64,000 bases of DNA, from assembly GCA_902826835.1 (NCBI GenBank), contig CADEGH010000026.1, positions 4,868-68,867 of the forward strand. Direction: 5' to 3'. The notes under the pieces were generated by a model. That model was given only the letters and a program-made list of their open reading frames with translations, was not told where the DNA came from and made no database searches. The stretch comes from an uncultured bacterium. Its GTDB lineage: Bacteria > Planctomycetota > GCA-002687715. How positions within the stretch are numbered: position 1 is the first letter of the stretch; each line of letters opens with the position of its first letter. Position numbers and translations under genes: made by a program. Positions 5,300 through 32,260 of the stretch are shown here, one piece after another.

Positions 5300-5331
5300 G
5301 TCTCGCCCCTCCCTGATCCCGTGGGGGCAGG

Positions 5332-6843: not shown

Positions 6844-7137
6844 AGTCGGTCTGGCCGTTCCGTGTCCAATCCCAGGACGATCCGAAGGCCGGCCTCCGGC
6901 CGCCAAGCCCAGGATCAGTCCGCCGGGACCCCCCGCTTGAACCTTGGCTCCGGCGCGTTCTTCACCTCCAGGACCGCCGCCCTCCACGGCAAGATCCCGG
7001 CTCATTCCCATCGCTCCCGGTCCAATTGCTCGATCGAAAATCCCTGGTCATTTTCCGGATCGCGCTGTCGATTCGCGGAGTCGTCGTCCGTCCTTGGGGC
7101 GTTCCGATTCCCAAACCGTGATAAGCAGGAGCTTCCT

Positions 7138-7488: not shown

Positions 7489-8756
7489 GTGAGAGCCCCA
7501 TACAGCCCCCCGGACTCGACCTACGCCGGGCTTCCGCCACCGTGATGGCGGCGCTCACCCGACTGGTCGGGCCGTCGCGGCTGGATTTGGCCGAGGATGC
7601 GACGCAGGACGCGCTGCTCCGGGCCTGTCGCCAATGGTCGAGTTCGGGAGTCCCCACGGATCCAATTGCATGGCTCTTGACCGCGGGTCGTCGGTCGCTG
7701 ATTGATCGGTGGCGCCGCCACCGTCTGGAAGCGGGCCCGCCAGCGGACGAGGCGGCAGGCTCCACTCCGCCGCCCGAAATCGCCGTCATCGCCGAAGCCG
7801 AGCCGCTTCGGGACGACACCCTGCGGATGCTCTTTCTCTGTTGTCACCCCGCGCTCCCTTCCGAGGTGAGAGTCCCGCTCATGCTGAAGGAGTGCGGCGG
7901 GTTTGTCGTCTCGGAGATCGCCACCGCGACTGGAAAAAGCCCGGAGACGATTGCGCAAAGACTCGTGCGCGCCAAACGAAAACTCCGCGACATCGGTGCG
8001 ACCTTCGAACTTCCCACGAGTACCGAGCTTCTCGAACGCTCCGAGGACGTCCGCGCCTGCATCTACGCCATCTTCACGGAGGGGTATCGCCCGGCCGCCA
8101 AGGATGCTTTTCTGCGCCCCGAACTCGTGGCCGAGAGCCTCCATCTCGTGTCGGAGCTCGATCATGCCGGGCAAGGGCGCGACCCACTGACCGCCGCGCT
8201 GGCGGCGCTCTTGGCATTCCACGCGGCCAGGCTTCCCGCCCGCCGAATCAGCGGAGACACCGCTCTCCTGCTCGAGGAGCAGGATCGTTCGCAGTGGGAC
8301 CGCGAACTCTTGAGCCGCGCCTTCATCGCCTTCGAACGATCGCTCGTCGGACCCACGCTCTCCCGCTGGCACATCGAGGCCTCCATCGCCTCCCTGCACG
8401 CGATGGCTGCCTCGTTCGCCGACACGGACTGGAGCGCGATCCTCCACCGCTACGACCAACTCCTCGCCGTCGCCCCCACCGCCGCCGTCCAAGAAAGCCG
8501 GTGGATCGCCCTGAGCATGGCGCGCGGCCCGACCGCCGCTCTCCGCGAAATAGAAGCCTGTCCCGATGCCTCGGACGATTCCCCCGGTCGCCCTGCTGTC
8601 CAAGCCTTCCTCCGCGAGCGCTCCGGCCAATTCGCCCTCGCCACCCAATGCTGGCTCCGGGCCGCCCTCCACGCCCGCTCCCCTGTCGAAGCCGCCTACT
8701 TCCACCGCCGCGCCCTCACCTCCTCCGCCCGCCCAGGGCCCAAGCCACCCGAATAG
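7485..8756 (+). CDS. ECF sigma factor (sigma-70 regions 2 and 4) with a C-terminal extension of about 230 aa; ECF42-like.
   Basis: Region 2 motifs are present (DATQDALLRACRQW, IAWLLTAGRRSLIDRWRR), as is region 4 (PLMLKECGGFVVSEIATATGKSPETIAQRLVRAKRKL). A long helical C-terminal tail follows. The gene sits immediately downstream of, and is translationally coupled to, a DGPF/YCII gene, which is the genomic context described for ECF42. Confidence 0.8.
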   Translation: MSESPIQPPGLDLRRASATVMAALTRLVGPSRLDLAEDATQDALLRACRQWSSSGVPTDPIAWLLTAGRRSLIDRWRRHRLEAGPPADEAAGSTPPPEIAVIAEAEPLRDDTLRMLFLCCHPALPSEVRVPLMLKECGGFVVSEIATATGKSPETIAQRLVRAKRKLRDIGATFELPTSTELLERSEDVRACIYAIFTEGYRPAAKDAFLRPELVAESLHLVSELDHAGQGRDPLTAALAALLAFHAARLPARRISGDTALLLEEQDRSQWDRELLSRAFIAFERSLVGPTLSRWHIEASIASLHAMAASFADTDWSAILHRYDQLLAVAPTAAVQESRWIALSMARGPTAALREIEACPDASDDSPGRPAVQAFLRERSGQFALATQCWLRAALHARSPVEAAYFHRRALTSSARPGPKPPE

Positions 8757-8791
8757 CGACAGGGACATCTCAGACAAGCATTGGTCTTCCT

Positions 8792-8828
8792 CCGGAAGCT
8801 GAGCCGAACCAGTCACGCTCGCTTCCGG
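8792..8828. terminator. Candidate bidirectional terminator hairpin between convergent genes.
   Basis: The sequence ccggaagc-(21 nt loop)-gcttccgg forms a perfect 8-bp stem between the stop of the sigma gene (8756) and the stop of the minus-strand RCC1 gene (8848). There is no U-tract, which is common in high-GC genomes. Confidence 0.3.
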
Positions 8829-8847
8829 CCTGAAACTGCGGCGATCG

Positions 8848-14699: not shown

Positions 14700-17497
14700 G
14701 GATCGATGCAGTTCTTGGCGGCGGGCGGAACCGTGGCGGGGGTGATGATGGTAGGCGGCGGATTGTTCTTCTGCGCCCGCCAGACGTTTCCATGGGTCTT
14801 CGGTTCGCGGACACAGTTGGGATTAGGGGCCGGCTTCTTGCGCCAATTCACGACTTGGTCCGACCCCGTGATGGTCACGCAGGCGTTGTCGGCAATGTCT
14901 TGGAGCGATTGACCGCCGTTCCCGGTCGTCGCGTTTTCGGTGAGGGCGGTCGAGCACGACAGCAACTTGATCGCGGGAGTGGCGCCGAGGTAGCACTGAA
15001 TGGCCTCGCCAAACGCCTCCGGAGAAATTTGACCTTCGTGGCGCCCTACCCGAGTCGGCCCTTCGAAGGGAGTGCCTTTCGGGCCGATTCGGAAGCCACC
15101 GGGACTCCCGTGCACGGCCAGGATCAGGCAATCGACTTTCTTGCATTGCCCGTAGAGGCCGCGAAGCTTGTTGATGATCGAATTGAGCCCGTTGGCCGGG
15201 AACGCTTCCCCGCCGGTCGAAGCGGCTTTCGCTTCGGCGTACTTCTTGAGGAAGTCGTCCCCCGGATCATCTTGATAAATGATGAGGGTGATACCCGTGA
15301 ATGGTCCGGCCTTGACCGGCTTGGGTATCAATTCTTCCTCCTTCCATTTCTCGGCCGTGGCTGCCGGTGCCTGCTTCTCCTTCTTCTTCTCTTCGTTGCT
15401 TGTAAAGCCGGTAAGCCCGTACGAGGCTTCGATGATGCCATGCAGGCTCGGAAGGGTCGGCAAACTCCCTTCAATGAAATGCACCGTCCCCGGTAGGCCG
15501 GAGGCGAGGTTCGTGGCTCCGAGGACATACACCTCACCACCGAGGGTTCGCACGAGGAGATTGAGGGCGTAGTCGTCGGGGATGGGGTCTTCGGGTCCAC
15601 CGCTCGTCACGATGGAATTGACGAAGGTCGAGACGGCACCCGGTGCGTTGATCCACACCAAGGGTTGCGCCGCCCCACTCGTGGGCGCATAAAACTGACA
15701 GGCGAATTCCGTGATGGAAGGAGCGATTGCGATCCAATCCGAGGCGGTCAAGGCGCAGGGAGCGGCCGCCGCGGAGACGGTTTCGATTTCGACTCCTTGG
15801 CTGAGGACAAATCCTTCGGGACTGGCACCGTCGAGAACGATCGCCTGCATCGAAACGTCGAAGGGGGCCGCGGGGAGGGGGAATTTCAACTCGAAGGGAA
15901 CAAGGGGAAGGAAGAAGGGCGCACTGATTCCATTGAAGAAGAACAAGGACGGTTGTCCGAGGTCGACGTTGATGATCTGCCCCATCGTCGAAATGAGACC
16001 CCCACCGGAGAGCGGGATGAGGGGCGAGAGGGTAAGCGCCGCTTCGTAGGGTGGCAGGGTCAAAGATGTGCCGAGCTTCAGGGTCACGAAACGGCCGGCG
16101 CAGGTCCGGTAGGCAGCGGGCTCGAAGCCGGTGCCTTGCACCGCCTGCATGGTGAGGTCTGCTTGGTCCTGCGGTCTTTGATAATCGACCAACGCGGGGG
16201 CGATACTCACCGCATCGAGGGTGAGTGGCCGCATGCTCTGATTGATGGCGAGATTTTCCCGGTAGCCAACGTAGACCGAGCCGACTCCGGTGAATCCCGT
16301 GCGTCCACTGAAGGTGGTTCCAGTGGCCGGGTTTCCGTAGACGCCACCAAACGTGCCTTCGACCAGGTTGCCGCGACACGAAATTCGTAAGCGCTGCCAG
16401 CCGTCGTTCATCCCCGGCAGAATCGCGATTTGGCCGAGTGTCAGATCGTCCTGACCACCATCCCCCTCGTCACGGAAGTAGAGGGTCCCTCCGGACATCG
16501 TCGCGATGTACTCCCAGGCTACGCCGGTGTTGCCATTGGCTGATACCTGGGTGCCTTGGTTGGGGAAGGGCGCCGGGTGGTTGTGGAACGAGCCCGTCGA
16601 ACCCCGCACCCCGATCGACCAGGACTCGAACTCGGTGGCCGTCGGAGCATTAGCGGCTGCGAAGTAGATCAACGCCTCGAAGATGACGTCCGCCTGCGCG
16701 GGGGATGCGAGCACGGCCGTGTCCCCACCGCCCGTAGGGTCCATGACGACCATGCAATTCCCGCCCTGCGGGGAGGGCGGAATCGCGGACGGGTTGTGGG
16801 CACCTCCCGGCCCCACCGCGCCAAAGACCGTGGGATCGACTACAAAGGCGGGAACAAACGAGGCCGACCACCCCGGCACCGGGGTTTCCGACGGCAGGGA
16901 ATCAAACCCATGGAAGTACGGCAAGCTGACGGCCACCGGGACGTTGGAGGCGCCGGGAGTCGCCGGCAAATGGCCAAAATCGCGCCCGTTGTTTCCACTA
17001 TCCAGCCCGTCCCGGAAGCGTGACCACGACTGCGCAGTGCCATCCGTCGAAGTATGATTGCCCCACAGACCGGCCCCTTCGATCAAGCCGACTGGGAAGT
17101 TGATCTCGCGGCGGTTGGTCTCGTAGGTGACCGTGTCCAAGACCGCCCCGCTCGACGCATCGCGGAGCACAATCACTTCCTCATCGTTCTCGAGCGAGTT
17201 GATCGGGATGATCTGTTGCACACCGGGAACCGCCGCATTTCCGAGCAAGTAAAATCCACCGGGCGGAATCGCGACGTTGGGACACGCGAGGGTGGTCATC
17301 ACGCTCACTCCCCCCGCATCGCGATTCTCGATCGTCAGAGAATTGGGGGCGATCGTCGTCTGCCCGGCGTTGAAGAGCTCGATGAACTCTCGGTCATCGG
17401 TGAGGGTATCGTCGTAGACGACCTCGTTGATGACGATCTGAGCCTGGGTGATGGCAGTCAGGCCGAGGGTCAAGGCTACCCACTGTGTCCAGCGCAT
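14696..17497 (-). CDS. Large secreted lamin-tail-domain (LTD) protein.
   Basis: A signal peptide (MRWTQWVALTLGLTAITQAQ) begins at the ATG at 17497. It is followed by an LTD signature (IVINEVVYDDT...REFIELFNAG). The C-terminal part has a Lys-rich linker and a region LILAVHGSPGGFRIGPKG. Confidence 0.7.
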   Translation of the reverse strand: MRWTQWVALTLGLTAITQAQIVINEVVYDDTLTDDREFIELFNAGQTTIAPNSLTIENRDAGGVSVMTTLACPNVAIPPGGFYLLGNAAVPGVQQIIPINSLENDEEVIVLRDASSGAVLDTVTYETNRREINFPVGLIEGAGLWGNHTSTDGTAQSWSRFRDGLDSGNNGRDFGHLPATPGASNVPVAVSLPYFHGFDSLPSETPVPGWSASFVPAFVVDPTVFGAVGPGGAHNPSAIPPSPQGGNCMVVMDPTGGGDTAVLASPAQADVIFEALIYFAAANAPTATEFESWSIGVRGSTGSFHNHPAPFPNQGTQVSANGNTGVAWEYIATMSGGTLYFRDEGDGGQDDLTLGQIAILPGMNDGWQRLRISCRGNLVEGTFGGVYGNPATGTTFSGRTGFTGVGSVYVGYRENLAINQSMRPLTLDAVSIAPALVDYQRPQDQADLTMQAVQGTGFEPAAYRTCAGRFVTLKLGTSLTLPPYEAALTLSPLIPLSGGGLISTMGQIINVDLGQPSLFFFNGISAPFFLPLVPFELKFPLPAAPFDVSMQAIVLDGASPEGFVLSQGVEIETVSAAAAPCALTASDWIAIAPSITEFACQFYAPTSGAAQPLVWINAPGAVSTFVNSIVTSGGPEDPIPDDYALNLLVRTLGGEVYVLGATNLASGLPGTVHFIEGSLPTLPSLHGIIEASYGLTGFTSNEEKKKEKQAPAATAEKWKEEELIPKPVKAGPFTGITLIIYQDDPGDDFLKKYAEAKAASTGGEAFPANGLNSIINKLRGLYGQCKKVDCLILAVHGSPGGFRIGPKGTPFEGPTRVGRHEGQISPEAFGEAIQCYLGATPAIKLLSCSTALTENATTGNGGQSLQDIADNACVTITGSDQVVNWRKKPAPNPNCVREPKTHGNVWRAQKNNPPPTIITPATVPPAAKNCIDP

Positions 17498-17679
17498 GGA
17501 GACACTCCTCGATCGGTCGAACCTCTCCGCAGGTAGGGCCAATGGTGGGGATGATGGACGCAGGACGGGAACCATCGTGCGTGCGGAGCAATGGACAGAT
17601 TAGGAGGGGGTCGGACTTGGAGTCAAGCCGGAAATTCCCCTCGGGCGCCCCCTCCTCCGAATCTCTGCCGGAATGAGCA

Positions 17680-18774
17680 TTATTGCACGAGGAGCGTAAC
17701 GGCGTTGGTGAGTTTGAGGGAGGGAGTGGTCGAACCTACGACGTAGGCTTGGAGCACGCCCGTCAGGTTCAGGAGGAGGGGGTCATTGGGGAGGCTGATG
17801 GGAAGCGTGAACTCTCCGTTCGGATCGAAGGCAAAGGTGAGGATCTCGCTGAAGAACGGTGAGGTGACGTCGATTCGAACCACGCCAGTGGGAGCTACGG
17901 GCAGGAAGCTCGCATTGGAGGAGTAGTAAAGTCCAAAGAATCCCGTGGGGTCTCCCCCGCGCAGCGTCAAATTCTCGGTTCCGCCGAGCGTGAGTGTCGG
18001 CAAACGTAGCCGGACGCGGCTCGGAATCGCCGCGAGCGAGCTCGTGCTACTGGGCAGGCTGCCCAGCGTCGAACCAGCCGTGCCAGTGACCGGATTGACT
18101 TCGTACACCGCGGTCGGGCTCGCCATGAACAGGCGGTTCGTGCCGTCGAGCGCAAAATCGAGACCACCCACCGCGGAGATCGCGACTCCGAGCGGGCCCA
18201 CGATCGAGGCCGCTCCGGTCGACTGGTCGATGAGGAGCAGGCTGTCGATGCCGGTCTCGATGGCGTAGAGGTTGTTGCTGATCGGATCGAGCGCCAATCC
18301 GGAGATGACGACCGAGGTCACGCCCGGCACCGTGATCGGGCCGATGAGGGTGAACACTCCGTCCAGTCCGATCGTCCACAGTTCGTCATCCCCAGTGGGC
18401 GGATCCGACGACCAATAGAGGAAGTTGTCGCCGGGTCCGAAGCTGAGTCCGCCCACCGCGGTGGACGTGAAGGGCAACGGGGCGACCAGCGTCGAGACGC
18501 CGTCCTCCATGCGATAGAAGCCGGTGGGCGAGCCCGAGCTGCTCGAGGTGGCCACGTAATAGCCGGTGTTCTCGTTGATCAGTTCGACACCACGGATGAA
18601 GTTCCCCACCGTCGTAGCCACCGGCGGAGTTTGCGGAGTCCCCGTCGGGTTCGTGATGTCCACCCAGTAGAGGGTGTCCAGGGTGGGGGCGATGTTGACG
18701 GCGACAAAGTCGACTTGGGCGGGCGCGATCGTGGCGAGCGCGCACCCGATCGCGAACACAGCGGGCTTGAACAT
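17680..18774 (-). CDS. Secreted hypothetical protein (beta-propeller/YVTN-like repeats).
   Basis: The N-terminus MFKPAVFAIGCALATIAPAQ is a signal peptide with an ATG start at 18774. It lies on the same strand immediately upstream of the LTD gene. Confidence 0.6.
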   Translation of the reverse strand: MFKPAVFAIGCALATIAPAQVDFVAVNIAPTLDTLYWVDITNPTGTPQTPPVATTVGNFIRGVELINENTGYYVATSSSSGSPTGFYRMEDGVSTLVAPLPFTSTAVGGLSFGPGDNFLYWSSDPPTGDDELWTIGLDGVFTLIGPITVPGVTSVVISGLALDPISNNLYAIETGIDSLLLIDQSTGAASIVGPLGVAISAVGGLDFALDGTNRLFMASPTAVYEVNPVTGTAGSTLGSLPSSTSSLAAIPSRVRLRLPTLTLGGTENLTLRGGDPTGFFGLYYSSNASFLPVAPTGVVRIDVTSPFFSEILTFAFDPNGEFTLPISLPNDPLLLNLTGVLQAYVVGSTTPSLKLTNAVTLLVQ

Positions 18775-18888
18775 GGCTGATTCTCCGGTTGGCAGGGTGG
18801 TCCGAGCTTAGCGGCGGGTTGGTGGAATTCGGAAAGGGAAAGCGGACGCGCCGGGCCGCGGCGACGGCCCGGGCAGGGCAGCTCGGGG

Positions 18889-19752
18889 TTGATAGGATGC
18901 CCCATGAACTGGTCTGTGCGTGTCCAATCCGAACGAGAACGCCTCCTCGCTGCCGCGAAGGAGTCGACCGCCAATGCTCGCCTCCTCGGCCCCCTCACCA
19001 AAGAAAGTGCCTATGGAGATTGGAAAAAACTCTCCCGCACCGTCCTGCAAATGAAACCCAAGGTACAGGGAGGGAACGAAGCCCTCCTGAACATGCTCAC
19101 CGAACTGGAAGGCTGGCTCCGCGAAGCGCCGGAGACCCAGCGGCGCGAGGTCGGCCGCCTTTTGAAGCAGATGTGCGAGGAGCGAGGACTGTCCTTTGGG
19201 GTCACGAGCCGCGATGACCCCGTCAAATTGCGCATCGCGCCGTTCGCGGTGGAGATCGACTTTCAAGCCGGAAAAGCCTCGCTCCAGTTTGCCCAGAAGA
19301 TCATTTCCGCTGCCCGAGTGGATGCGGCGGACATCCTCGCCAAGCGCGAGGAGATCATGAAGCACTGGGACGCCGGCTTCGATCCCGGGCAGTTCCACGA
19401 GCGCTGCCGCCGCGCGTGGCGCGCGGCGAAGGCGGCCGAAGAGCAGGTCGAGGATCGGGTCGAAATCCTCAAATTCCTGCCTCACCTGGCCCTCCAGATG
19501 CAGTCCGAAAAGTTCGCAATCGAGCCCGAGTCCAAGAGTTTTCAGGGCTACGGCCGGGCCCGCTTCGCCTACGACATCATGAAGCTCCGTCGGGACCGCA
19601 AGCTCGATCACGGCGGATGGAGACTGAATCTCGGGGTCGCGACCGGTGGGTCCGGTCAGGACAACAAGCGCGCCGTGTACTTCGAGGACGAACACGGCGT
19701 CGGCGAAAAGAAGATCAACGTCTTCTTTCAGCGCAGCGAGGCGAGCGCATGA
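18889..19752 (+). CDS. Hypothetical protein; first gene of the NTPase-helicase cassette.
   Basis: The ORF is 287 aa with no motif I can assign. An alternative ATG at 18904 has an AGGA ribosome-binding site 6 nt upstream. Its stop overlaps the ATG of the next gene (gcATGAagg at 19749-19752). Confidence 0.6.
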   Translation: MIGCPMNWSVRVQSERERLLAAAKESTANARLLGPLTKESAYGDWKKLSRTVLQMKPKVQGGNEALLNMLTELEGWLREAPETQRREVGRLLKQMCEERGLSFGVTSRDDPVKLRIAPFAVEIDFQAGKASLQFAQKIISAARVDAADILAKREEIMKHWDAGFDPGQFHERCRRAWRAAKAAEEQVEDRVEILKFLPHLALQMQSEKFAIEPESKSFQGYGRARFAYDIMKLRRDRKLDHGGWRLNLGVATGGSGQDNKRAVYFEDEHGVGEKKINVFFQRSEASA

Positions 19753-21023
19753 AGGATTTGCAGTCGCTCCTCCCTTCCGCAGCCGCGCACATCGTGCAGC
19801 GAATGGGCGAGTCGGGCCAGCCACCCGAGCGCCAAGCTCTGGCGGTGAATGTCGGCACGGACGAAATCCTCGCGACGCTCCGAACCGAATATCTGGTGCC
19901 GATGAAGTCCGGCCGCAACTCGAGCTTCAAGCTCGTGCAGGCCACCTTCGGCGGCGGCAAGACCCAGTTCCTCCATTGCTTGCGAGAGCTCTCCGAGGCG
20001 GAAGGATTTGCGACCGCGCTTGTGGGGGTGTCCCCGAAGGAGTGCCCGTTCGATGATGCGGCGCGGATTTGGCGGGCAGTGGCCCGCACGGTCGAGATGC
20101 CGGCGGGCGAGGAGGCCTTTGTCCGTCGACCCGGTCTCGACCATCTACTCCGCCAATTTGCCGAATCGCGAGTCGAAGAATTTGGGAAGGCCGAGTTTAC
20201 CGACTGGGTGCAAACCGAACTCGCCCGAGCCGCCGTCGAAAGCACGTCGTTCCTCCGCGCGGTAGTCGCCTTCTTGAAAGCCACCACCACGGGCGATTCC
20301 GGCGCCGAGGATACGCTCGGCGACTATCTGCGCGGGGAAGCCGTCCCGCTTTCCGAACTCGCGGACTACCGCATCCGGGAACTCCCGAACGACGAAAACG
20401 GTTTCCGATTCCTGCGCACCCTCGCGCAGGTGCTCCGCCACCTCGAGCTCCCCGGCCTCGTGCTCCTCTTCGACGAAATGGACCGCACGATGAGTCTGCC
20501 CAAGCGCAAGAAACGCGCGATCGGCGACAATCTGCGGCAAATGATCGATCATTGCGGCCAGGCGGTGTTCCCCGGCGTGCTCCTCGTCTACGCCGTGCCT
20601 CCGGAATTCATGACGCAGGTCGTGGTGGAATACCCGGCGCTCGAGCAGCGGCTCAAACACGCGGCGGGGCTCGGACCCAAGTCTCCGCTCGCCCCCCTCA
20701 TCGACCTCGATCACCTGCCGCTCCCCACTGTCCAGCTCTTCCGCAAGATCGGCGAGAGGCTCCTGGCCCTCTATCAGCGAGGTTACTCGGTGGATCTGGA
20801 CTCCGACCTCCAACTCCAAAATTTGCAACACCTCTCCCGCACTCTCGGGGAGGACGCGCTCGAAACCGGTTCGCGCCGCACCTTCGTGAAGGCGGCCGTG
20901 AGCTTGCTCGCCAACCAGCACCACGAAGGCAAACGTAGGCTTTCCGACGCGGACATCGAACGCTTGGCCCGCGCGGCCCGTGACGCTGACAAGCGCGTCA
21001 TGGAAGGCGAGCGCGAGATTTGA
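19749..21023 (+). CDS. P-loop NTPase with BrxD/DUF2791-like architecture.
   Basis: Walker A (QATFGGGKTQFLHCL) and Walker B (LVLLFDEMD) motifs are present. The protein is about 424 aa. Its start overlaps the stop of the upstream gene, and the track ORF 19416..21023 contains this in-frame start. Confidence 0.65.
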   Translation: MKDLQSLLPSAAAHIVQRMGESGQPPERQALAVNVGTDEILATLRTEYLVPMKSGRNSSFKLVQATFGGGKTQFLHCLRELSEAEGFATALVGVSPKECPFDDAARIWRAVARTVEMPAGEEAFVRRPGLDHLLRQFAESRVEEFGKAEFTDWVQTELARAAVESTSFLRAVVAFLKATTTGDSGAEDTLGDYLRGEAVPLSELADYRIRELPNDENGFRFLRTLAQVLRHLELPGLVLLFDEMDRTMSLPKRKKRAIGDNLRQMIDHCGQAVFPGVLLVYAVPPEFMTQVVVEYPALEQRLKHAAGLGPKSPLAPLIDLDHLPLPTVQLFRKIGERLLALYQRGYSVDLDSDLQLQNLQHLSRTLGEDALETGSRRTFVKAAVSLLANQHHEGKRRLSDADIERLARAARDADKRVMEGEREI

Positions 21024-21025
21024 CG

Positions 21026-22435
21026 ATGCACTCTGTCCGGCTCGGCTCGCGGGTGATCCACCCCCGCTTCGGAGAGGGCACGGTGGTTGCCCTTGTGGTG
21101 GGTTACAAGGCCAAGGTGCGGTTCGACGCCCGGCCCACCCTACCGAGAACGTTCTTACAGCGGGACCTGAAGCCGACGGATCGGGCCGAACTCGCGCTTT
21201 CCGCGGAAGCGGCGGGGGCGCCAGCCGCCCATTTGCCCAAGGTGGCGAACCTGATCCGCGAGCGCATCACGACCGCTTCGTCGGAAGAACGGTCCGATGC
21301 ACGCCAAGCGATGGAGGCGATCCGCCTCGGCGTGGTTCCGTCGCGTTGCGCCCGCGACTACACGGTGGCCCGCGACGCAGCGCTCGCATCGTTCGATGCG
21401 CTGCTTGAGTCTCGGCGGGGGATGCGCGTTCTTTGGGGCGACTACGGGGCGGGCAAGACCCACTTGCTCGACGTCATCGAGACCACCGCGCTCGAGCGCC
21501 AATTTGTCACCTCGCGGATTGCGCTCGGCCCCGACGAGGCTCCCCCTTCGCAGCCGCAGAGGTTATTCCGAGCGCTCGTCACCCGCCTCCGTCTGCCCGA
21601 CGGCGCCGGAGTGGGACTCTTGGCCCTGCTCGAACGGTTGGTCGAAAGCGCTGATCACCACACGCCGGATGGAAAGCGATTCAGTCGCTTCTTTTCGCCG
21701 TACCTTTGGGCCCAACACCGCCACGACGAAGGAGCGGCGGCCCTGATGTCCGACTACCTCCTCGGGGAGCCCACCGATCCCTACTTGCTCGAGCGAGGCC
21801 TCCGCCGGGTGCGCTGGCCGGGTCCGAAACCGCTCGTGCTCTCGGATTTTCGCACCTACGGCCGGGTCTATTTGCACCTGTTCGGAGTGCTCGCGGCCTG
21901 GTGCAAGGACGCGGGCTACCGCGGGCTGCTCTTGCTCTTGGACGAAGTCGAATACGTCGAGGGGCAAGGCACTGCCGAGGCCGAACGGGCCCAAGACGTA
22001 CTCGATCACTTCGCCGCCTCGACAATCGAGCCCGAAGAACTCGGATTCGATCCCGAGGGCCTCTACAAAGGTGGTCAGGCCGTTCACCGCGCGTTGCCCT
22101 TACGATTCGATGATGACCATCCCTTGGCGGTCGTACTCGCGGCGACCCCTCTGCCGGAGATTTGGACGGGCCTCCACTCGCGCTACCGCGCTCCCCACCT
22201 CGACGTGCTCCTGACTCCCCTCGTCCAGGCGGATTTGGTCGAACTCGTCAAGCGCATCTTCCTCCTCTATCGCGTGGCCTATCCCGATTACCGGCCCGAA
22301 GATCAACTGGTCCGCGGCATCGCGAGCGCGCTCTCGGCAATTCTCGAACGCGGCGAAAACTCGACCCGCGCGCTGGTTCGTGCCACCGTCGCGCTCTGTG
22401 ACCGGGCGCGCATTTTCGGCTCGCTCGACGCATGA
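21026..22435 (+). CDS. P-loop NTPase, paralog of the upstream gene, with an N-terminal UvrD-C-terminal-like (HPxFGxGxV) domain.
   Basis: The N-terminus GSRVIHPRFGEGTVVALVVGYKAKVRFD resembles the Tudor-like C-terminal domain of UvrD/PcrA. Walker A (GDYGAGKTHLLD) and Walker B (LLLLLDEVEY) motifs follow. The ATG at 21026 lies 3 nt after the upstream stop; the track starts the ORF at a TTG at 21020. Confidence 0.65.
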   Translation: MHSVRLGSRVIHPRFGEGTVVALVVGYKAKVRFDARPTLPRTFLQRDLKPTDRAELALSAEAAGAPAAHLPKVANLIRERITTASSEERSDARQAMEAIRLGVVPSRCARDYTVARDAALASFDALLESRRGMRVLWGDYGAGKTHLLDVIETTALERQFVTSRIALGPDEAPPSQPQRLFRALVTRLRLPDGAGVGLLALLERLVESADHHTPDGKRFSRFFSPYLWAQHRHDEGAAALMSDYLLGEPTDPYLLERGLRRVRWPGPKPLVLSDFRTYGRVYLHLFGVLAAWCKDAGYRGLLLLLDEVEYVEGQGTAEAERAQDVLDHFAASTIEPEELGFDPEGLYKGGQAVHRALPLRFDDDHPLAVVLAATPLPEIWTGLHSRYRAPHLDVLLTPLVQADLVELVKRIFLLYRVAYPDYRPEDQLVRGIASALSAILERGENSTRALVRATVALCDRARIFGSLDA

Positions 22436-24480
22436 AATCGCTGCCGGAGTGGCTCCCGGCCGCCTATCCGGTCTTTCTCGGTCGCTTCCCGAAGCCGACT
22501 CCGGTTCAACTCCAAGCGATTCCGTTGATCATGGAGGGAAAGGATGTCCTGATCTGCGCGCCGACCGCCTCCGGCAAGACGGAAGCATTTGCCGCCCCCG
22601 CCGCGGAAATGGTGCGGTTCGCACGTTCGAGCGACCTGCGTGTCTTGATACTCAGTCCGACCCGCGCCTTGGCGAACGATCTCTATCGCAGACTTCAGTC
22701 CCGCTTCGAAGACTCGAGCGTCAGCCTCGGACGCTACACCGGTGAGCACAAGGACCGAGTTGGTGGAAAGCTCCCCGCCGTGGCCATCGCCACGCCGGAG
22801 GCTCTCGACTCGCTCTTGGCGCGCCGATCGGCGGCGCTGCGCTCGGTGCGCCTTTTGGTCATGGATGAAATCCACATCCTCGACGGCAGCACCCGCGGCG
22901 ACCATTTGCGTGTCCTACTGCATCGCCTGCGCCAGGCGACCGGCCACCACATTCAGCGCCTCGCCGTGTCCGCCACCGTCGATCATCCCGAGGCATTGGC
23001 GCGACGCTATTTGCACGCCGCGTCGATCGTCACCGTGCCCGGAAATCGACCCCTCTTGGTACGCAGTTTTCCCGGTAGTGGCCCCGAAGACGTGGTTCGT
23101 CACTGCGACACTTTGGCCGAGCACGGATTGCGCAAGATCCTGATCTTCTGCAATCGCCGCGCCGACGTGGAAACTCTGACCCGCAAACTCCGGGAGCAGG
23201 GCCGATTCCGCGAGGCCATTTTCCCGCACCACGGATCCCTGTCTCAGACCATCCGGGAGCGCACTGAGGAGCGCTTTCTCTCCGCCCCCGCCGCGGTGGC
23301 CATCGCCACCATGACTCTCGAAATCGGAATCGACATCGGGAGTGTCGACTATGTGCTCTTGGTCGGGCTGCCGCTGAGCGTCGCCTCCCTTCTCCAGCGG
23401 ATCGGCCGCGGCAACCGACGAACCGGTCAGACCCGTGCGGGTTACACCGTCGACCGGCCCCGTGACGAAATCATCGCTTCCAAGCTGTTTCGGTCCGCCA
23501 AGGCCGGCCAGCTCCACGGTGCTCCCTATGCGTTCCGTCCGAGCGTGATCGTGCAGCAGGCCTTGGTTCTGGCCGGCGCCCACCATTGGGTCGACGCCGC
23601 TCGTCTGGAGGCCGCCGTGCCTCCCGAGCTGTGGCAGGAGTCGGCTCCGGCGGAGGCGCAGGACATTCTCGAAACGTTGGTCGAGCGGGGCCATCTGGAG
23701 GCGAGCGGAGGGCGGCGCTACGTGCTCTCGGAGTCGATCGAGGCCCGCTACGAACGCGGAGTCCTCCACTCCAACCTCGCCGACGATCCCGGAGTCGAAG
23801 TCATCGATCGCCTCACCGGCGAGGTGATCGGCAAGGTGGATCTCCCCGAAAATCGCGAACAACATCTCGCTGGCGAGTCCCGACGGATCGTGGCCATCAC
23901 CAAGGAGGCCATCCTCACGGATCGAAGCCGGGGCGACGTGATTCCCCAGTTCAGTTCGAAGGGGATTCCGCTCACCAGTTTTGCCCTGGCACGGGCGGTC
24001 ATTCGATCGATCCCAGTCTCCGCCGTCTCCACCGAGCTTCGAGAGTTCGACATTCCCCACTTCCGCGTGGGCAGCTCCCTGTTTGTCCTGCACGGCCTCG
24101 GAACGCTCGGGGGATGGCTGCTCTCCAAATGGCTGGAGAAACGGGAGGACCTAATGCCGGAAAGTCAGACGGCGTACGGACTGCGGGTTGCCACGCCGAA
24201 TTTCCGCTTGCCGGCGCCCGCGCTCGACGAACTCGAAGACCTCATCACCCGCGAGGCTCGTCGCCTCGAGGAGCTGTGCGCGCCCGGTCCGTGGCACGGA
24301 GATCTTCCGACATCCGTCAAGATCGCCAGCCTCACCAGGCTGTCGGGGGCCGCCGCGCTCGCGGATTTCCTCGCCAAGGCCCGCTTGGTTCCGGTTGAAC
24401 TCGGAGACGAAGATCGCCAAGCTTGGGCCGATCTCGTGGCTTCCTCCGCGCCGTTGCGCCCCCCTCAAGAATCCCCATGA
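22432..24480 (+). CDS. Superfamily-2 DEAD/DEAH-box helicase, Lhr/BrxHI-like.
   Basis: The helicase motifs are present: Q-motif PTPVQLQAIP, motif I CAPTASGKTEAF, motif II LVMDEIHILDG (DEIH), motif III SATV, and motif VI LLQRIGRGNRR. The start overlaps the upstream stop (gcATGAaa at 22432-22435). Confidence 0.8.
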   Translation: MKSLPEWLPAAYPVFLGRFPKPTPVQLQAIPLIMEGKDVLICAPTASGKTEAFAAPAAEMVRFARSSDLRVLILSPTRALANDLYRRLQSRFEDSSVSLGRYTGEHKDRVGGKLPAVAIATPEALDSLLARRSAALRSVRLLVMDEIHILDGSTRGDHLRVLLHRLRQATGHHIQRLAVSATVDHPEALARRYLHAASIVTVPGNRPLLVRSFPGSGPEDVVRHCDTLAEHGLRKILIFCNRRADVETLTRKLREQGRFREAIFPHHGSLSQTIRERTEERFLSAPAAVAIATMTLEIGIDIGSVDYVLLVGLPLSVASLLQRIGRGNRRTGQTRAGYTVDRPRDEIIASKLFRSAKAGQLHGAPYAFRPSVIVQQALVLAGAHHWVDAARLEAAVPPELWQESAPAEAQDILETLVERGHLEASGGRRYVLSESIEARYERGVLHSNLADDPGVEVIDRLTGEVIGKVDLPENREQHLAGESRRIVAITKEAILTDRSRGDVIPQFSSKGIPLTSFALARAVIRSIPVSAVSTELREFDIPHFRVGSSLFVLHGLGTLGGWLLSKWLEKREDLMPESQTAYGLRVATPNFRLPAPALDELEDLITREARRLEELCAPGPWHGDLPTSVKIASLTRLSGAAALADFLAKARLVPVELGDEDRQAWADLVASSAPLRPPQESP

Positions 24481-25598
24481 CCTTCATCCTCGTCGCCAGC
24501 GCCGCCCTCTTCTTGGCCTCGGTGCTGATCACAGTCCTGATTTGGCTCGGCTTGAGAATCACTCTCGGACCACGACCCGGATTTTGGCGGCGGGCGCTGA
24601 TCGCGCTCGGACTCCTGTTGCCCGTCATCGTATTCATCGGCGCTCCGATCGCCCTCGGGATCTTCGGAGGCTCCAACATCGGGACTCGCCACGACGAGCG
24701 GGGATACCGCGGACCGCGCATCGCCCGCGACGGAAGCTGGGTCCGGCAGAGTCGCGCTACGCTGCGCCAAGAAGCGAAGGGGGAGATCGAAGTCGAGCCG
24801 GCGCTCCGCGCTTCCGCCGACGCCGCGCTCATCGGCCTGAAGACCCTTGACGGCCTCGAACTGCGGGCGTTCTTCGTTCCCCCCGTGGGCGGTGCACCCA
24901 AGGCCAGCGTCGTCCTCGTGCACGGCCTTTTTCGGGGTGGGCTCGAACTCGAGGCCCCGGCGGAGCTGTTCCGCAACCTCGGGGCCGAAGTGCTGCTCTT
25001 GGAAATGCGCAACCACGGCGGGAGCGCGCGGGCCCCCGCCACCTTCGGGGCGACCGAAAAGCAGGACGTCATCGCCGCCGTGCAGTGGTTGCGCCGCGAT
25101 CCGGAGCGAGCGCGGCGCCCCCTCGTGCTCTTCGGAGTCAGCCTCGGCACCGCCGCGGTGGTCCTCGCGGCCGCCGAGATTCCCGACTTGGCGGGCCTGG
25201 TCCTGGATGCGCCCGTGGACGATCTCCTCTTGACGGCGCATCGCATGCTTTCCGAGGAGGCGCGGGCCGGTCGACCAGGACCGAGCCTCGGTGAACCCTT
25301 CCGTTCTTGGGCACTCACCGCCATCGAGTGGAAAAACGGCTTCCGATTCGCGGATGTCCGGCCCATCGATGTCGTGTCTGGGCTCTCCCCGGAGCTGGCG
25401 GTTCTCGTCATTTCCGGGAGTGAAGACGTGCGCCTGCCGCCGTCCACCGCGGAGGCGATGCACCGGGCCTTCCCGGTGCCGGCCGACCGTAAACTCCTCT
25501 GGGTCCGTGAGGGGTCCGATCACGGCCAAGTGTGGGTCGACGATCCGGAGGGCTACCGATCTCGGCTGGAGCAGTTCTTCGCTCTGCTCCCCCGCTGA
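24477..25598 (+). CDS. Membrane-anchored alpha/beta-fold hydrolase (two N-terminal TM helices).
   Basis: Two TM segments (MTFILVASAALFLASVLITVLIWLGL and LIALGLLLPVIVFIGAPIALGIF) precede an alpha/beta hydrolase core with a GVSLG nucleophile elbow. The start overlaps the helicase stop (ccATGA at 24477-24480). Confidence 0.75.
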   Translation: MTFILVASAALFLASVLITVLIWLGLRITLGPRPGFWRRALIALGLLLPVIVFIGAPIALGIFGGSNIGTRHDERGYRGPRIARDGSWVRQSRATLRQEAKGEIEVEPALRASADAALIGLKTLDGLELRAFFVPPVGGAPKASVVLVHGLFRGGLELEAPAELFRNLGAEVLLLEMRNHGGSARAPATFGATEKQDVIAAVQWLRRDPERARRPLVLFGVSLGTAAVVLAAAEIPDLAGLVLDAPVDDLLLTAHRMLSEEARAGRPGPSLGEPFRSWALTAIEWKNGFRFADVRPIDVVSGLSPELAVLVISGSEDVRLPPSTAEAMHRAFPVPADRKLLWVREGSDHGQVWVDDPEGYRSRLEQFFALLPR

Positions 25599-25643
25599 CG
25601 CCAGGAGCCCAAATGCGCTAAGCTTCGGCCGGAGGAGCTTCCT

Positions 25644-26294
25644 TTGTCGAGTGAACTCGATCCGACGGAACGACGCCTGCTCGGGGTGCTGATCGAAAAG
25701 CAACTCTCCACTCCGGACGCCTACCCGCTTTCCCTCAACGCTCTGGTGCTCGGGGCCAATCAGAAGTCGTGCCGCGACCCCATCACGAGCTACGCCGACT
25801 GGGAAGTCGAAGGTGCGGTGACTTCTCTTTGCAACAAGAAGTGGGCGATGCACATCGAAGGCGGACGGGTTCGCCGCTGGCGGCATCAGGCCTCCGAAAA
25901 ACTGGGCATCGACAAGGCCGGCTTGGCCGTACTCGCCGAGCTTCTGCTCCGCGGTTCTCAGCAACCGGCGGAGCTGCGCCGCAACGCCGGCCGCTTGAGC
26001 CCGATCCACAGCGACGAGGAAATGCAGGCCATCCTCGACCAGCTCGCGGCGAAATTGCCGCCCTTGGTCAAGAACATCGGTCGAGCCCCTCGTGAACGCG
26101 ATGTGCGCTGGACTCAAACGCTCGCGCCCGACGAGCTTCCCGATGGTACCGGGCTGAGCGGGGCGGCGGCCTCCGCACCTCCCTCTCCCTCGCCGATGGT
26201 CGGGGGCTCCACTCCAACCCCGGCGCAACTACTCGCCCGTATCGAAGCGCTTGAGCACGAAGTCGCGGAGCTCAAGCGCAGCCTCGGCGCGTAG
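25644..26294 (+). CDS. DUF480/YceH (UPF0502) family protein.
   Basis: The sequence SSELDPTERRLLGVLIEKQLSTPDAYPLSLNALVLGANQKSCRDP matches the YceH family. The start is TTG, with a perfect GGAGGAG ribosome-binding site 8 nt upstream. The C-terminus is a coiled coil. Confidence 0.75.
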   Translation: MSSELDPTERRLLGVLIEKQLSTPDAYPLSLNALVLGANQKSCRDPITSYADWEVEGAVTSLCNKKWAMHIEGGRVRRWRHQASEKLGIDKAGLAVLAELLLRGSQQPAELRRNAGRLSPIHSDEEMQAILDQLAAKLPPLVKNIGRAPRERDVRWTQTLAPDELPDGTGLSGAAASAPPSPSPMVGGSTPTPAQLLARIEALEHEVAELKRSLGA

Positions 26295-26355
26295 ACCGCT
26301 CGTATTCGCTCCGCTTTTTTCCTACGATCGGCGCTCAGCCGAACGGAGCCCGACG

Positions 26356-26724
26356 ATGGACGACGCCAAAGCCAACTTCCAAGCCCTCAGCGCCTCGGAG
26401 AAATTCGCCGGGGTTTCCGCCGCCGGGGTCGTTTTTTTCTACCTCGTTGCGAAGGCCTACCAGCTCGGCGGAATCTTTCCGACCTGCTCAATCATCGGGG
26501 GCCTGGGCGTCCTGATTCTCGTGGGCTCGAGCATGGCAGGCATGGTGTTGGTCGATGCGGCGCTTCGACCGAAGCTCTTGATCGGCCTCTCGCTCCTGCC
26601 TCTGTTCGGATTTGTCGTCGACGCACTCTCCAACTTCTGGTACGCGGCGCTCCTGTTCAGCACCCTCGCCATGGCCTATTCGGCCGTGCTCGCCCTCGGG
26701 GGCAAGAAACCGAGTTCCGCGTGA
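26356..26724 (+). CDS. Small integral membrane protein; hypothetical.
   Basis: Three or four hydrophobic helices are present (FAGVSAAGVVFFYLVAKAY, IIGGLGVLILVGSSMAGMVLV, LIGLSLLPLFGFVV, YAALLFSTLAMAYSAVLAL). The ATG at 26356 lies within track ORF 26251..26724. The stop overlaps the next start (ATGA). Confidence 0.5.
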   Translation: MDDAKANFQALSASEKFAGVSAAGVVFFYLVAKAYQLGGIFPTCSIIGGLGVLILVGSSMAGMVLVDAALRPKLLIGLSLLPLFGFVVDALSNFWYAALLFSTLAMAYSAVLALGGKKPSSA

Positions 26725-27155
26725 CCCTCCATCAACCGGTTCAAGTCCCCGGCAGCGTGGCCCCCCGCGGATACTCCGACGGCGTGGTCAGCAGTGCCGG
26801 GTGTCGGCTCCTTCATCTCGGTGGTCATGTGGCCTTCGATTCCGAGCGGCGCATTCGACATCCCGGTGACTTGGTCGGTCAGATGCGCGTCGTGCTCGAA
26901 AATCTCAAGGGCACTCTGAGTGCGGCCGGGGGCGGGCCCGAACACTTGGTCAAACTCACGATCCACACCACGGACGTGCTGAAGTACCGGGCGAACCTCG
27001 GCGAGATCGGCAAGATATGGCGCTCCATCCTGGGCTGCGCCTATCCGGCGATGACCTTACTGGGCGTGCGCGAGCTGTTCGATGACGGCGCAGTGCTCGA
27101 GATCGACGGCGTCGCCGCATTGCCGCCGGATTCCGCCTCCGATTCGAGCCTGTAG
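26721..27155 (+). CDS. RidA/YjgF/Endoribonuclease L-PSP family protein.
   Basis: The length (144 aa) and motifs (HLVKLTIHTTD, AMTLLGVRELFDDGAVLEIDGVAAL) are typical of the YjgF/RidA fold. Confidence 0.8.
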   Translation: MTLHQPVQVPGSVAPRGYSDGVVSSAGCRLLHLGGHVAFDSERRIRHPGDLVGQMRVVLENLKGTLSAAGGGPEHLVKLTIHTTDVLKYRANLGEIGKIWRSILGCAYPAMTLLGVRELFDDGAVLEIDGVAALPPDSASDSSL

Positions 27156-30310: not shown

Positions 30311-32260
30311 GTGTCCAACTCTCTTGATCTTGACCTGATCTTTCGCCGGGAAAGCGAGCAGGTGGAGTGGAAGAAGGGCGTGGCCGATATCGACGAAGTG
30401 GTCAAGACGCTCTCGGCGTTTGCCAACGACTTGGCCAACGTCGGGGGCGGTTACCTTGCCTGCGGGGTCGCGGAAGGAAAAGACGAGTACGGCTATGTCG
30501 TCGCCGACAAGGTCGGATTGACTCACTCAGAACTCGAGGAAATCAAAGGGAAAGTCCTCACGCGATGCCGCGACCTCGTTTCTCCGGCGATCACTCCCCA
30601 AGTTTTCGAGGTAGAAGCCAAGAGCCCAAGTCGACGCATACTGGTGTTTGTCCAGCCGACGACGCTGAAGGCGCACACTTTCACCAATCGGAAGGATGAA
30701 AAAGGCTGCTTCATCCGCAATGCCCGCGAGACCATTGAAGCGAAGAACGGAGTCCTCCTGGAGCTCCTGAGTCTGCGTGGGGAAGTTCCCCCTTGGGACC
30801 TCCAGCCAGTTGAAGCTGCCACCTCCAACGACATCGATCTCGTAGTCCTGCGGGAGGTACTCAACCGCATCAAGCGTGTTCCGGAGGACGCCAAAGTCGA
30901 CGTTTTTCTTTCCGACACCCGCCCGATCAACGCGCTTATTCCCCCTCTGATGGTCAAAGAACCACTGACGGGAATCCTACGACCTCGCCGTTTCGCGATA
31001 CTCCTGTTCGGTCGCGAGGTGCAGCGCTTCATCCCCTCCGCGGTGAGTCTCTACTCGGTTTATCCTGGTGTCGATCGCTCGGAATCCCACTCGGAGCGGC
31101 ACGAGATCATCGGGACAATCTTCGAGCAGGCCACGAAACTGCGATCTCTGCTCCAAACTCAATGCGTGACGCAGTTCGACAAAACCAACTTGGACCGCCC
31201 GAATTCCGTCCGTTACCCGGAACAAGCCTTGATCGAAGCCATGGTCAACGTGCTCGCTCACCGGGACTACCAGAACCCAAACCCGGTGCGCATCACCGCG
31301 TTCTCCGATCGGATTGAAATGCTGTCGCCCGGCGGCCTGCTCCGGGTCGTTCCGTCCGACGAGTTCTCACAAGGCAAGGCTCCCTCGACTTGGCGCTCCA
31401 CCGCCCTCGCCTGGTTCCTCAAGGAACTGCAGCTCGCCCAAGTCGAGGGCCAAGGCCTCCCCACCATCAAGCGTCGCCTTCAGGACAACGAGAACCCGGA
31501 GCCCACCTTTGAAGTCGGTCCCGAACACGTTCGCTACATTATTCCAGCCCGCCTCCCACAAAACGTTGATCACACCTACCAAACCATCCGCCGGCTCATT
31601 TTGATCGGAAACACGGACGAGGCCGTGGAAAAGCTCGATGTCACAATGCGCACTAGTGGCATTAACTCAGAGGCCCTTCGACTCTTTGAGAAACTCAGCC
31701 GCTCGATGAATGCAAAAAGCGTTGCTCGGCATGCTCGAAGGGCCCTGGACCATTTTCGCGGGAATTCTATAAATCCCAGAATTGCTCCTGATGAGCTACT
31801 ATGCGTAGTTGCAGCCATTCGGAATAGGAAGACTACCAATTCCTCACTTCGCGAGCTCAGCCGACAACTGGTTGAAGATGCTCGCCGATCAGTGAGTAGC
31901 GCTTCGGAAGCCATCGCGTTCCTGGAGAAATATGGAACTATCCACCCTATTGATGCCGAAGAGACCGCCTTCCTCCTGGAGAAACGATTTCCCTCGCTAA
32001 TCGGTATGCCCGAATACCACGTTACGATACTCAAGATTGCGGTCGAGTCTGCGAAGGTCATGGTCACGACGATACACAGCCATGGGATAGACGCGAAGGA
32101 CCGGTCTGCCGCCACCGCAGAAGCTGAAGTTGTACTTGCGCGCATTTCCAACATGCTGGAATCGGCGGAATCGTGGAGTAGAGACCAGAGGTTCAAGGAA
32201 CTTGCCGACTCGATTAGGCAAGAGTATTCCAATTTGAGGAAACGTCTGGGGAAGGAATGA
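30311..32260 (+). CDS. AlbA_2 (divergent AAA / putative DNA-binding) plus HATPase_c_4 domain protein, Schlafen-like; usually annotated as a RecG-like transcriptional regulator.
   Basis: An N-terminal AlbA_2 signature (ESEQVEWKKG...LSAFANDLANVGGGYLACGVAEG) and a HATPase_c_4 signature (EAMVNVLAHRDYQNPNPVRITAFSDRIEMLSPGGL) are present. The start is GTG at 30311. The gene, and especially its 3' third (about 31550-32300), is clearly more AT-rich than its surroundings. Confidence 0.8.
   Translation: MSNSLDLDLIFRRESEQVEWKKGVADIDEVVKTLSAFANDLANVGGGYLACGVAEGKDEYGYVVADKVGLTHSELEEIKGKVLTRCRDLVSPAITPQVFEVEAKSPSRRILVFVQPTTLKAHTFTNRKDEKGCFIRNARETIEAKNGVLLELLSLRGEVPPWDLQPVEAATSNDIDLVVLREVLNRIKRVPEDAKVDVFLSDTRPINALIPPLMVKEPLTGILRPRRFAILLFGREVQRFIPSAVSLYSVYPGVDRSESHSERHEIIGTIFEQATKLRSLLQTQCVTQFDKTNLDRPNSVRYPEQALIEAMVNVLAHRDYQNPNPVRITAFSDRIEMLSPGGLLRVVPSDEFSQGKAPSTWRSTALAWFLKELQLAQVEGQGLPTIKRRLQDNENPEPTFEVGPEHVRYIIPARLPQNVDHTYQTIRRLILIGNTDEAVEKLDVTMRTSGINSEALRLFEKLSRSMNAKSVARHARRALDHFRGNSINPRIAPDELLCVVAAIRNRKTTNSSLRELSRQLVEDARRSVSSASEAIAFLEKYGTIHPIDAEETAFLLEKRFPSLIGMPEYHVTILKIAVESAKVMVTTIHSHGIDAKDRSAATAEAEVVLARISNMLESAESWSRDQRFKELADSIRQEYSNLRKRLGKE

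Follow-up and report, generated by a model that had tools for sequence, protein, structure and literature searches.

A dyad made up of a BrxD/SngB-type ATPase and an Lhr-like helicase is common to two described systems, type 2 BREX (bacteriophage exclusion; BREX-2) and Shango, and the locus presented here bears on its mechanism. Shango, consisting of a TerB protein, an ATPase and a DEAD/DEAH helicase, protects against phages (bioRxiv 10.1101/2022.11.11.516204; 10.1101/2022.05.11.491447). In type 2 BREX, BrxD is an AAA+ ATPase of the ORC/Cdc6 type that forms a tightly linked dyad with the helicase BrxHI; loading or activation of this helicase has been proposed as its role (PMC12839542). We analysed a stretch of 64,000 nucleotides (nt) from an uncultured member of the Planctomycetota (contig CADEGH010000026.1, positions 4,868 to 68,867), referred to as the window, and in particular a cassette of four coupled genes, g1 to g4, which encodes a leader protein, two ATPases and a helicase. 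Related to the Shango and BREX-2 modules but itself without a name, the cassette represents a new architectural variant of the ATPase-helicase dyad. It is not categorically new; its new features are the partner family g1, the presence of two ATPase paralogues and the fusion of one of them to a Tudor domain. A preliminary description of this DNA had not recognised the arrangement as a named defence system, and a PADLOC run agrees, as no named system in PADLOC-DB v2 has this arrangement.

All genes of the cassette lie on the plus strand. The first, g1 (18904-19752), starts with ATG and encodes 282 amino acids (aa); an alternative upstream TTG start is possible at 18889. It is followed by g2 (19749-21023; 424 aa), a BrxD/SngB-family AAA+ ATPase (PF10923, ORC/Cdc6-type), and by g3 (21026-22435; 469 aa), a second ATPase of this family with the layout Tudor domain, linker, ATPase, whose predicted N-terminal UvrD/PcrA-type Tudor domain (aa 1-52) occupies 21026-21181. 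The fourth gene, g4 (22432-24480; 682 aa), encodes an Lhr/BrxHI/SngC-like superfamily 2 (SF2) DExH helicase. The adjacent g5 (24477-25598), encoding a 373-aa alpha/beta-hydrolase, is a neighbour only and not a conserved component. Overlaps of 4 nt of the ATGA type are found at the junctions g1/g2, g3/g4 and g4/g5, and the spacer between g2 and g3 measures 2 nt. The five tightly coupled plus-strand reading frames of the preliminary description are thus present where it had placed them, with real ATGA overlaps, and its reading as a translationally coupled operon is supported; two details had to be corrected, namely the length of g3 (469 aa, not 470) and the g2/g3 spacer (2 nt, not 3). A scan of 18400-27000 for promoters and terminators revealed no signal above shuffled controls.

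To place the cassette among its relatives, gene contexts were drawn from metagenome and genome contigs and from 49 species-representative loci (loci are denoted by L and a number). In tblastn comparisons, the order g1, g2, g3, g4 on one strand recurs in about 40 loci with protein identities to the window of 36-67% and junctions of mostly -4 or -1 nt, and all core-group loci of sufficient length carry it. The recurrence of this order in about 40 independent loci far exceeds chance. Hosts of the four-gene cassette belong to the Planctomycetota, Myxococcota, Gemmatimonadota and Binatia, complemented by a plasmid of Desulfomonile tiedjei. The 49 loci were found among 185,579 species representatives and derive mostly from metagenome-assembled genomes of Planctomycetota, with some Myxococcales and Gemmatimonadota; more distant relatives in the same collection come from Kofleriaceae/'delta proteobacterium' and Anaerolineae/Chloroflexi. 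A Binatia genome (GCA_026004195.1, L001) also has the cassette. Clustering of the flanking open reading frames (ORFs) across loci gave no recurrent neighbour outside four closely related genomes. Taken together, the four-gene operon is conserved and horizontally spread. The preliminary description had delimited a unit of five genes; the conserved unit comprises four, since none of 57 other related loci has a g5 homologue (at least 50 bits) next to the cassette, and a comparison of neighbourhoods confirms co-localisation across genomes for g1 to g4 and not for g5. In two loci g3 and g4 are separated by insertions, of approximately 1.5 kb in L033 (13514-15038) and 0.47 kb in L044 (13496-13982).

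Scans with hidden Markov models (HMMs) revealed two reduced forms of the operon. A two-gene form, consisting of g1 and g2 only, occurs in Kofleriaceae/'delta proteobacterium' (L050-L052, L056), and a three-gene form, in which g1 and g2 are joined by a Tudor-bearing g3 with no helicase within 10 kb, occurs in Anaerolineae/Chloroflexi (L053-L055, L057). Both are surrounded by housekeeping genes, and in both g1 and g2 stay together. The full architecture was also recovered, by a tblastn search of g2 against plasmids, on the 26.9-kb plasmid pDESTI.01 of D. tiedjei DSM 6799 (WP_014813311-WP_014813314). There, a 279-aa hypothetical protein is the counterpart of g1 (g1 HMM, E=1.6e-10), two proteins annotated as 'BREX system ATP-binding domain' correspond to g2 and g3, respectively, by their profile matches, and the last gene encodes a DEAD/DEAH helicase; the junctions are -4/+2/-4. 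This plasmid version is devoid of the Tudor domain. Upstream of the plasmid cassette, a ParA gene is found at a distance of about 2 kb and an AbiEi/AbiEii pair at about 3 kb, ParA and two further genes lying in between.

Both ATPases exceed the Pfam gathering threshold of BrxC_BrxD (PF10923; 22.2 bits), g2 with 110.5 bits (1.2e-31) and g3 with 71.4 bits (9.2e-20), and both contain Walker A and B motifs: around G68-G70-K71 and at D242-E243 in g2, and at G141-G143-K144-T145 and D306-E307 in g3. Across 52 g2 orthologues and 44 g3 orthologues, conservation of Walker A (GxxGxGKT) and Walker B (DE) reaches at least 90%. The preliminary classification of the two genes as paralogous BrxD-family P-loop NTPases was therefore upheld by the HMM searches. 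Named relatives of g2 and g3 are confined to BrxD and SngB. PADLOC matches g2 to BrxD (7e-24) and SngB (1e-12, 45 bits), and g3 about equally to both (BrxD 9e-15; SngB 1.6e-14, 52 bits). At the stricter equivalog level of BrxD (NCBIfam NF033438, cut-off 350 bits), g2 reaches 83.4 bits and g3 53.6 bits only. The two proteins share 25% identity (E=1e-8). In a neighbour-joining tree, the g2 orthologues, including those from the reduced variants, form one clade (199/200), the g3 orthologues form a separate clade (185/200), and these two appear as sisters in only 1/200. The BREX-2 BrxD proteins constitute a clade of their own (200/200) with g2 and g3 outside; the SngB model scores neither g2 nor g3 better than the BrxD model does, and the sampled SngB proteins, a small sample, fall outside the g2 and g3 groups. 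The g2 and g3 proteins form two old and separate clades, distinct from the sampled BrxD of BREX-2 and, as far as the small sample shows, from the SngB of Shango.

The preliminary description had assigned the N-terminal HPRFGEGTV stretch of g3 to a UvrD-type Tudor domain. On a single-sequence basis, the match to Pfam PcrA_UvrD_tudor is weak (E=0.16). A Tudor profile built from 30 g3 N-termini and searched against PDB, however, retrieved C-terminal domains of UvrD/PcrA (7egt_B, 7e-6; 6yi2_A, 2e-4; 7egs_B, 2.5e-4), with PcrA 5dma_A at 0.024 and the RNA polymerase-interacting domain of Mfd matched only faintly, so that the assignment is borne out at the profile level. Judged by these profile matches, the g3 N-terminus is homologous to the C-terminal Tudor domain of UvrD/PcrA. 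The 52 N-terminal residues of g3 display the same GDRVxHxxFGxGxV...VxF signature; the context differs in that the domain of g3 precedes an AAA+ ATPase, whereas the domain of UvrD/PcrA is located at the C-terminus of an SF1 helicase. The region of about 50 aa is conserved in 38 of 44 g3 orthologues and is absent from g2, from the sampled BrxD and SngB proteins and from the plasmid homologues. The Tudor domain of PcrA/UvrD binds RNA polymerase (PMC5397179, PMC8318588), and by analogy with these studies the domain of g3 may bind the beta subunit of RNA polymerase or a helicase-interaction motif.

The helicase g4 matches DEAD (3.9e-38) and Helicase_C (9.7e-17) in Pfam. Its best matches among the defence models of PADLOC are BrxHI (2.5e-70) and SngC (5.9e-65), which are about equal; the BrxHI model aligns to residues 19-444 and the SngC model to residues 23-335, with the core of the protein extending over aa ~19-335. 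The C-terminal ~240 aa are conserved and have no family match. Motifs Q, I (GKT), II (DEIH), III (SAT) and VI are at least 90% conserved in 36 orthologues, in good accordance with the earlier identification of g4 as an Lhr/BrxHI-like DExH helicase carrying these motifs. As regards Lhr itself, the suggested relationship holds for the SF2 core and not at the family level. The closest solved relatives are Lhr structures (5v9x_A, 2e-31; 7lhl_A, 1e-30), but the Lhr equivalogs PRK13767 (180 bits, cut-off 849) and PRK09751 (115 bits, cut-off 1496) as well as the ligase-associated DEXH model TIGR04121 (166 bits, cut-off 850) remain far below their cut-offs. Both g4 and Lhr/Lhr-core, a mycobacterial DNA-repair helicase, are DExH SF2 helicases; the similarity is confined to the SF2 core, and the genomic partners differ.

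The leader protein g1 is the invariant partner of g2. No match was found in Pfam, PADLOC, NCBIfam or PHROGs, nor was a solved homologue. A first word-indexed search yielded 28 homologue clusters, and an exhaustive profile search extended the family to 755 representative clusters at E<=1e-3 (152 at E<=1e-30), the majority of whose members measure about 290 aa. In a confident AlphaFold2 model (predicted local distance difference test score 93), a helical hairpin (aa 3-93) is followed by a five-stranded beta-sheet (aa 98-138), by helices and by a winged-helix-like C-terminal domain (aa ~188-277) resembling the winged helices of ORC1/Cdc6/Cdt1. Our tentative reading of the modelled fold is that a hairpin at the N-terminus and a small beta-sheet precede what is probably a winged helix. 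Two candidate identities were rejected: an analogue of TerB/SngA by homology, as no sequence or fold signal is present, and a nuclease, as no nuclease fold is present. In two proteins of about 730 aa (P0336, P0413), a full N-terminus of a phosphoglucosamine mutase (GlmM-like) is joined to a g1-family C-terminus; this is more probably the product of gene adjacency or of a read-through gene call than a functional fusion.

As to function, the cassette probably serves nucleic-acid surveillance or defence, possibly in association with RNA polymerase. We propose that g1 to g4 constitute a self-contained variant of the ATPase-helicase dyad acting as an anti-mobile-element machine; such a defence role is the most likely one, and its chances appear evenly balanced. 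Complex formation, loading of the helicase, tethering to RNA polymerase and defence itself are inferred from the comparisons above, and the following scheme is conditional in all its steps. The ATPases g2 and g3 would form a hetero-oligomeric, ATP-driven switch. As g1 is invariably linked to g2, it is a candidate adaptor or recognition subunit: an obligatory partner of g2 that would contact nucleic acid or another target through its coiled-coil and winged-helix-like domains and fill the place held by the TerB protein in Shango. Via the Tudor domain of g3, the complex could be anchored to RNA polymerase or to a different protein that bears a helicase-interaction motif. Upon recognition of an aberrant nucleic-acid or transcription state, e.g., invading DNA, the ATPases would recruit or load g4, which would then translocate and unwind and thereby block replication or transcription of the invader.

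A more specific version of this scheme is offered tentatively, as a possibility that is rather less likely than not. Here, the g1 adaptor and the two-ATPase hetero-oligomer would monitor transcribing RNA polymerase via the Tudor domain and load the helicase on foreign or aberrant nucleic acid, as a hitherto undescribed autonomous immune or surveillance system. In this version g1 and g2 would represent the ancestral sensor core, to which the Tudor-ATPase and the helicase were added stepwise, as is suggested by the two- and three-gene variants.

A role in defence is favoured by the family ties to defence systems, by the sparse multi-phylum spread with variable flanks and by the plasmid copy located about 3 kb from an AbiE pair. 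Several observations weigh against it. When 144 ORFs flanking the cassette in 16 loci were scanned with PADLOC, only generic Ser/Thr-kinase matches were returned, without enrichment of restriction-modification, CRISPR or abortive-infection genes, and the neighbours of related loci are mostly housekeeping genes. A nuclease, toxin or other effector domain could not be detected in g1 to g4, and no relative of the cassette was found on IMG/VR viral contigs. Furthermore, some variants do without a helicase, so that g4 is not the output in every case. About 6 of 44 g3 orthologues and the plasmid version lack the Tudor domain; tethering to RNA polymerase can thus not be essential in every member. A phage origin was considered and rejected, as g1 to g3 have no PHROG match and IMG/VR holds no relatives.

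Defence genes near the related loci are isolated: apart from the AbiE pair on pDESTI.01, Dcm/Vsr genes lie ~3.5-5 kb downstream of the cassette in L001. In this Binatia locus (15650-20900), the cassette is followed by two unknown proteins (604 and 308 aa), a DUF6339 protein, a DNA cytosine methyltransferase and Vsr, which may represent an adjacent restriction-like module. Within the window, the only defence-like signal near the cassette is a 649-aa protein encoded 4.7 kb downstream (30311-32260, plus strand), which contains Schlafen AlbA_2 and HATPase_c_4 domains and shows partial PADLOC matches to pAgo-associated Aga_SIR2-PNTD models (7e-14). Directly upstream of the cassette in L007 (4167-9614) and L019 (~4900-9300), a gene pair encoding proteins of 157-166 aa and ~85 aa, neither with a Pfam match, is repeated in five or six tandem copies, which may point to a toxin/immunity array that has diversified or to a polymorphic array.

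The main rival to the proposed defence function is genome maintenance, an explanation that we regard as possible, if on balance rather doubtful. According to it, the ORC-like ATPase pair would recruit the Lhr-like helicase via the Tudor domain to transcription complexes that have stalled or run into conflict (R-loops, lesions), and the cassette would be an accessory pathway of transcription-coupled repair or of R-loop removal. This would suit a helicase whose closest solved relative is Lhr and a Tudor domain corresponding to the RNA polymerase-binding domain of UvrD/PcrA, proteins that act in transcription-coupled repair and R-loop suppression (PMC8318588, PMC5397179). The neighbourhoods, which are mostly housekeeping and not defence islands, and the failure to find an effector or toxin point in the same direction. 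However, the very sparse and patchy distribution over several phyla with changing flanks is atypical for a repair pathway, a small plasmid carries one copy, with an AbiE pair at a distance of about 3 kb, and outside this cassette the ATPase family is known from BREX-2 and Shango alone. The scores of g4 far below the cut-offs of the NCBIfam Lhr and ligase-associated DEXH models likewise speak against this rival.

According to a further explanation, the cassette would serve to replicate or maintain a mobile element, either a plasmid or an integrated element, with g1 as a winged-helix initiator-like protein, g2 and g3 as ORC/Cdc6-like proteins and g4 as the helicase. We consider it improbable. 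The BrxD-family ATPases do belong to the ORC/Cdc6 clade of AAA+ proteins (PMC12839542). The g1 C-terminus resembles initiator winged helices, and the cassette of pDESTI.01 lies near ParA on a plasmid with no annotated Rep gene. Replication of this plasmid could nevertheless be served by a 401-aa helix-turn-helix protein beside ParA or by a DNA polymerase gene. Moreover, in about 50 chromosomal loci the cassette stands by itself in housekeeping surroundings, where integrase, partition or transfer genes do not recur, and g1 to g3 lack a PHROG family match. Lhr-type SF2 helicases are not known to act as replicative helicases.

Still less likely is the five-gene system envisaged in the preliminary description, in which the NTPase-helicase module would trigger g5, an alpha/beta-hydrolase with two transmembrane segments, as its membrane effector. 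Effectors that act on membranes are a common feature of abortive-infection systems, and g5 belongs to Hydrolase_4 and Abhydrolase_1/6 of Pfam, has two apparent N-terminal hydrophobic helices, and follows g4 on the same strand with a 4-nt overlap. The g4-g5 junction, flanks included, is repeated only in a 98%-identical relative (L058, GCA_902825955.1), and PADLOC returned no match for g5. More than 170 g5 orthologue clusters of ~373 aa exist, whose members with a source name are all Planctomycetota, and orthologues with 50-61% identity sit among unrelated genes, without a BrxD-like or helicase gene. In L060 (1824-5578), an orthologue with 61% identity likewise has a 4-nt overlap, here with the stop of an unrelated 877-aa Ser/Thr kinase gene, and the ATGA overlap of this hydrolase gene is therefore not specific to the cassette. 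Since orthologues occur elsewhere without the cassette and none is found at the 57 related loci, g5 is a mere neighbour: an independent, widespread resident gene of the Planctomycetota that the cassette happens to precede, and not an effector. Synteny has thus already largely refuted the effector reading.

The window also contains two Ser/Thr kinase genes, at 35-5299 (plus strand, 1754 aa) and 57491-60214 (minus strand, 907 aa). The preliminary description had speculated on a link of the former to PglW. This link fails: the PglW model matches residues 105-248, i.e., the kinase domain, only (67 bits, as compared to ~280 bits for generic kinase models), and no protein with the NERD nuclease, tandem kinase and sensor domains of PglW was found in the window. 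Both kinases match PD-T4-6, mad6 and MkoA (N-terminus) equally well; as two unrelated kinases match alike, such PADLOC kinase matches are no indicator of defence in kinase-rich phyla. The idea that the cassette is a decayed type 2 BREX (Pgl) remnant deprived of pglX, pglZ, brxC and pglW, for which one could cite the BrxD matches of g2 and g3, the BrxHI match of g4 and the kinases in the window, is most improbable and in practice already refuted, because the same four-gene set without any BREX core gene is conserved across phyla with motifs and overlaps kept, the BrxD clade does not include g2 and g3, which reach 83 or 54 of the 350 equivalog bits, no PglX, PglZ or BrxC is encoded among the large ORFs of the window, and the kinase resembles PglW in its generic kinase domain only.

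With respect to the dyad itself, the cassette provides a third and minimal context, in which no methyltransferase, PglZ or TerB protein takes part. Its two diverged ATPase paralogues suggest a hetero-oligomer, and it adds both an obligatory partner, g1, and a domain whose homologue in UvrD/PcrA binds RNA polymerase. The natural two-, three- and four-gene forms constitute a built-in dissection series, for which the plasmid version in the cultured D. tiedjei DSM 6799 offers an experimental starting point. If the cassette serves defence, Shango-like immunity would extend to Planctomycetota, Myxococcota and other phyla that are poorly charted for such systems; if it does not, the ATPase-helicase dyad would not be an intrinsically immune module.

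Among described systems, resemblance to MANTIS/Gao_RL is limited to mechanistic analogy. In that system, the AAA+ ATPase MtsA, together with the co-regulator MtsB, places an enzyme on DNA and sets off a helicase-nuclease (bioRxiv 10.64898/2026.09.23.753747). An AAA+ ATPase that recruits a DNA enzyme together with a small co-regulator, and a helicase as output, are the shared elements; the families differ, as MANTIS/Gao_RL employs a DUF499-type ATPase, a methyltransferase and a helicase-nuclease fusion, and the cassette has neither a methyltransferase nor a nuclease.

Type 2 BREX is closer, and the preliminary description had likened the ATPases and the helicase to the BrxD-BrxHI pair. The family matches support this likeness, but the closest named system is Shango and not BREX-2 alone. 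In canonical BREX-2 loci on plasmids of Polaromonas and Streptomyces (L067, L068), read as pglX...pglZ-brxD-helicase, a PF10923 ATPase adjoins and overlaps an SF2 DExH helicase as it does in the cassette. In contrast, the locus lacks PglX, PglZ, BrxC and PglW, and its g3 bears a Tudor domain, whereas BrxD is described as a stand-alone protein without extra domains (PMC12839542); in addition, the C-terminal ~240 aa of g4 are left unmatched by the BrxHI model. The earlier statement that the core BREX genes are absent was confirmed with Pfam and PADLOC for the neighbours and the large ORFs of the window. Along the annotated related loci, no DNA methyltransferase or PglZ-type gene stands beside the cassette, the DNA_methylase of L001 being ~3.5 kb downstream.

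Shango shares with the cassette an operon composed of a leader protein, a BrxD-like P-loop ATPase and an Lhr-like SF2 helicase with tight junctions. A canonical Shango on a Klebsiella plasmid (L065) reads TerB-N protein, ATPase, helicase, and g4 occupies the position of its SngC-type helicase downstream of the ATPase, in line with its SngC match. Neither system has an obvious effector domain. They differ in the first gene, which in Shango encodes the TerB/TerB-N protein SngA of about 770 aa and in the cassette the ~280-aa g1 without a TerB domain and without detectable relation to SngA. They also differ in the ATPase, which in the cassette is represented by two anciently diverged paralogues, one of them with the Tudor domain that the sampled SngB proteins lack. 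Another unnamed context of the dyad was observed on a plasmid of Deinococcus psychrotolerans (L063, NZ_CP034187.1, 38023-51825), where two tandem triads, each of a hypothetical protein, a BrxD-like ATPase and a DEAD/DEAH helicase, are separated by an HNH gene; both helicase genes carry the same protein accession, and in the tests run the leader proteins showed no relationship to either g1 or TerB. Comparison of the contexts in Shango, BREX-2, Deinococcus and our cassette reveals the ATPase-helicase dyad as a mobile core that has been joined to differing leader genes.

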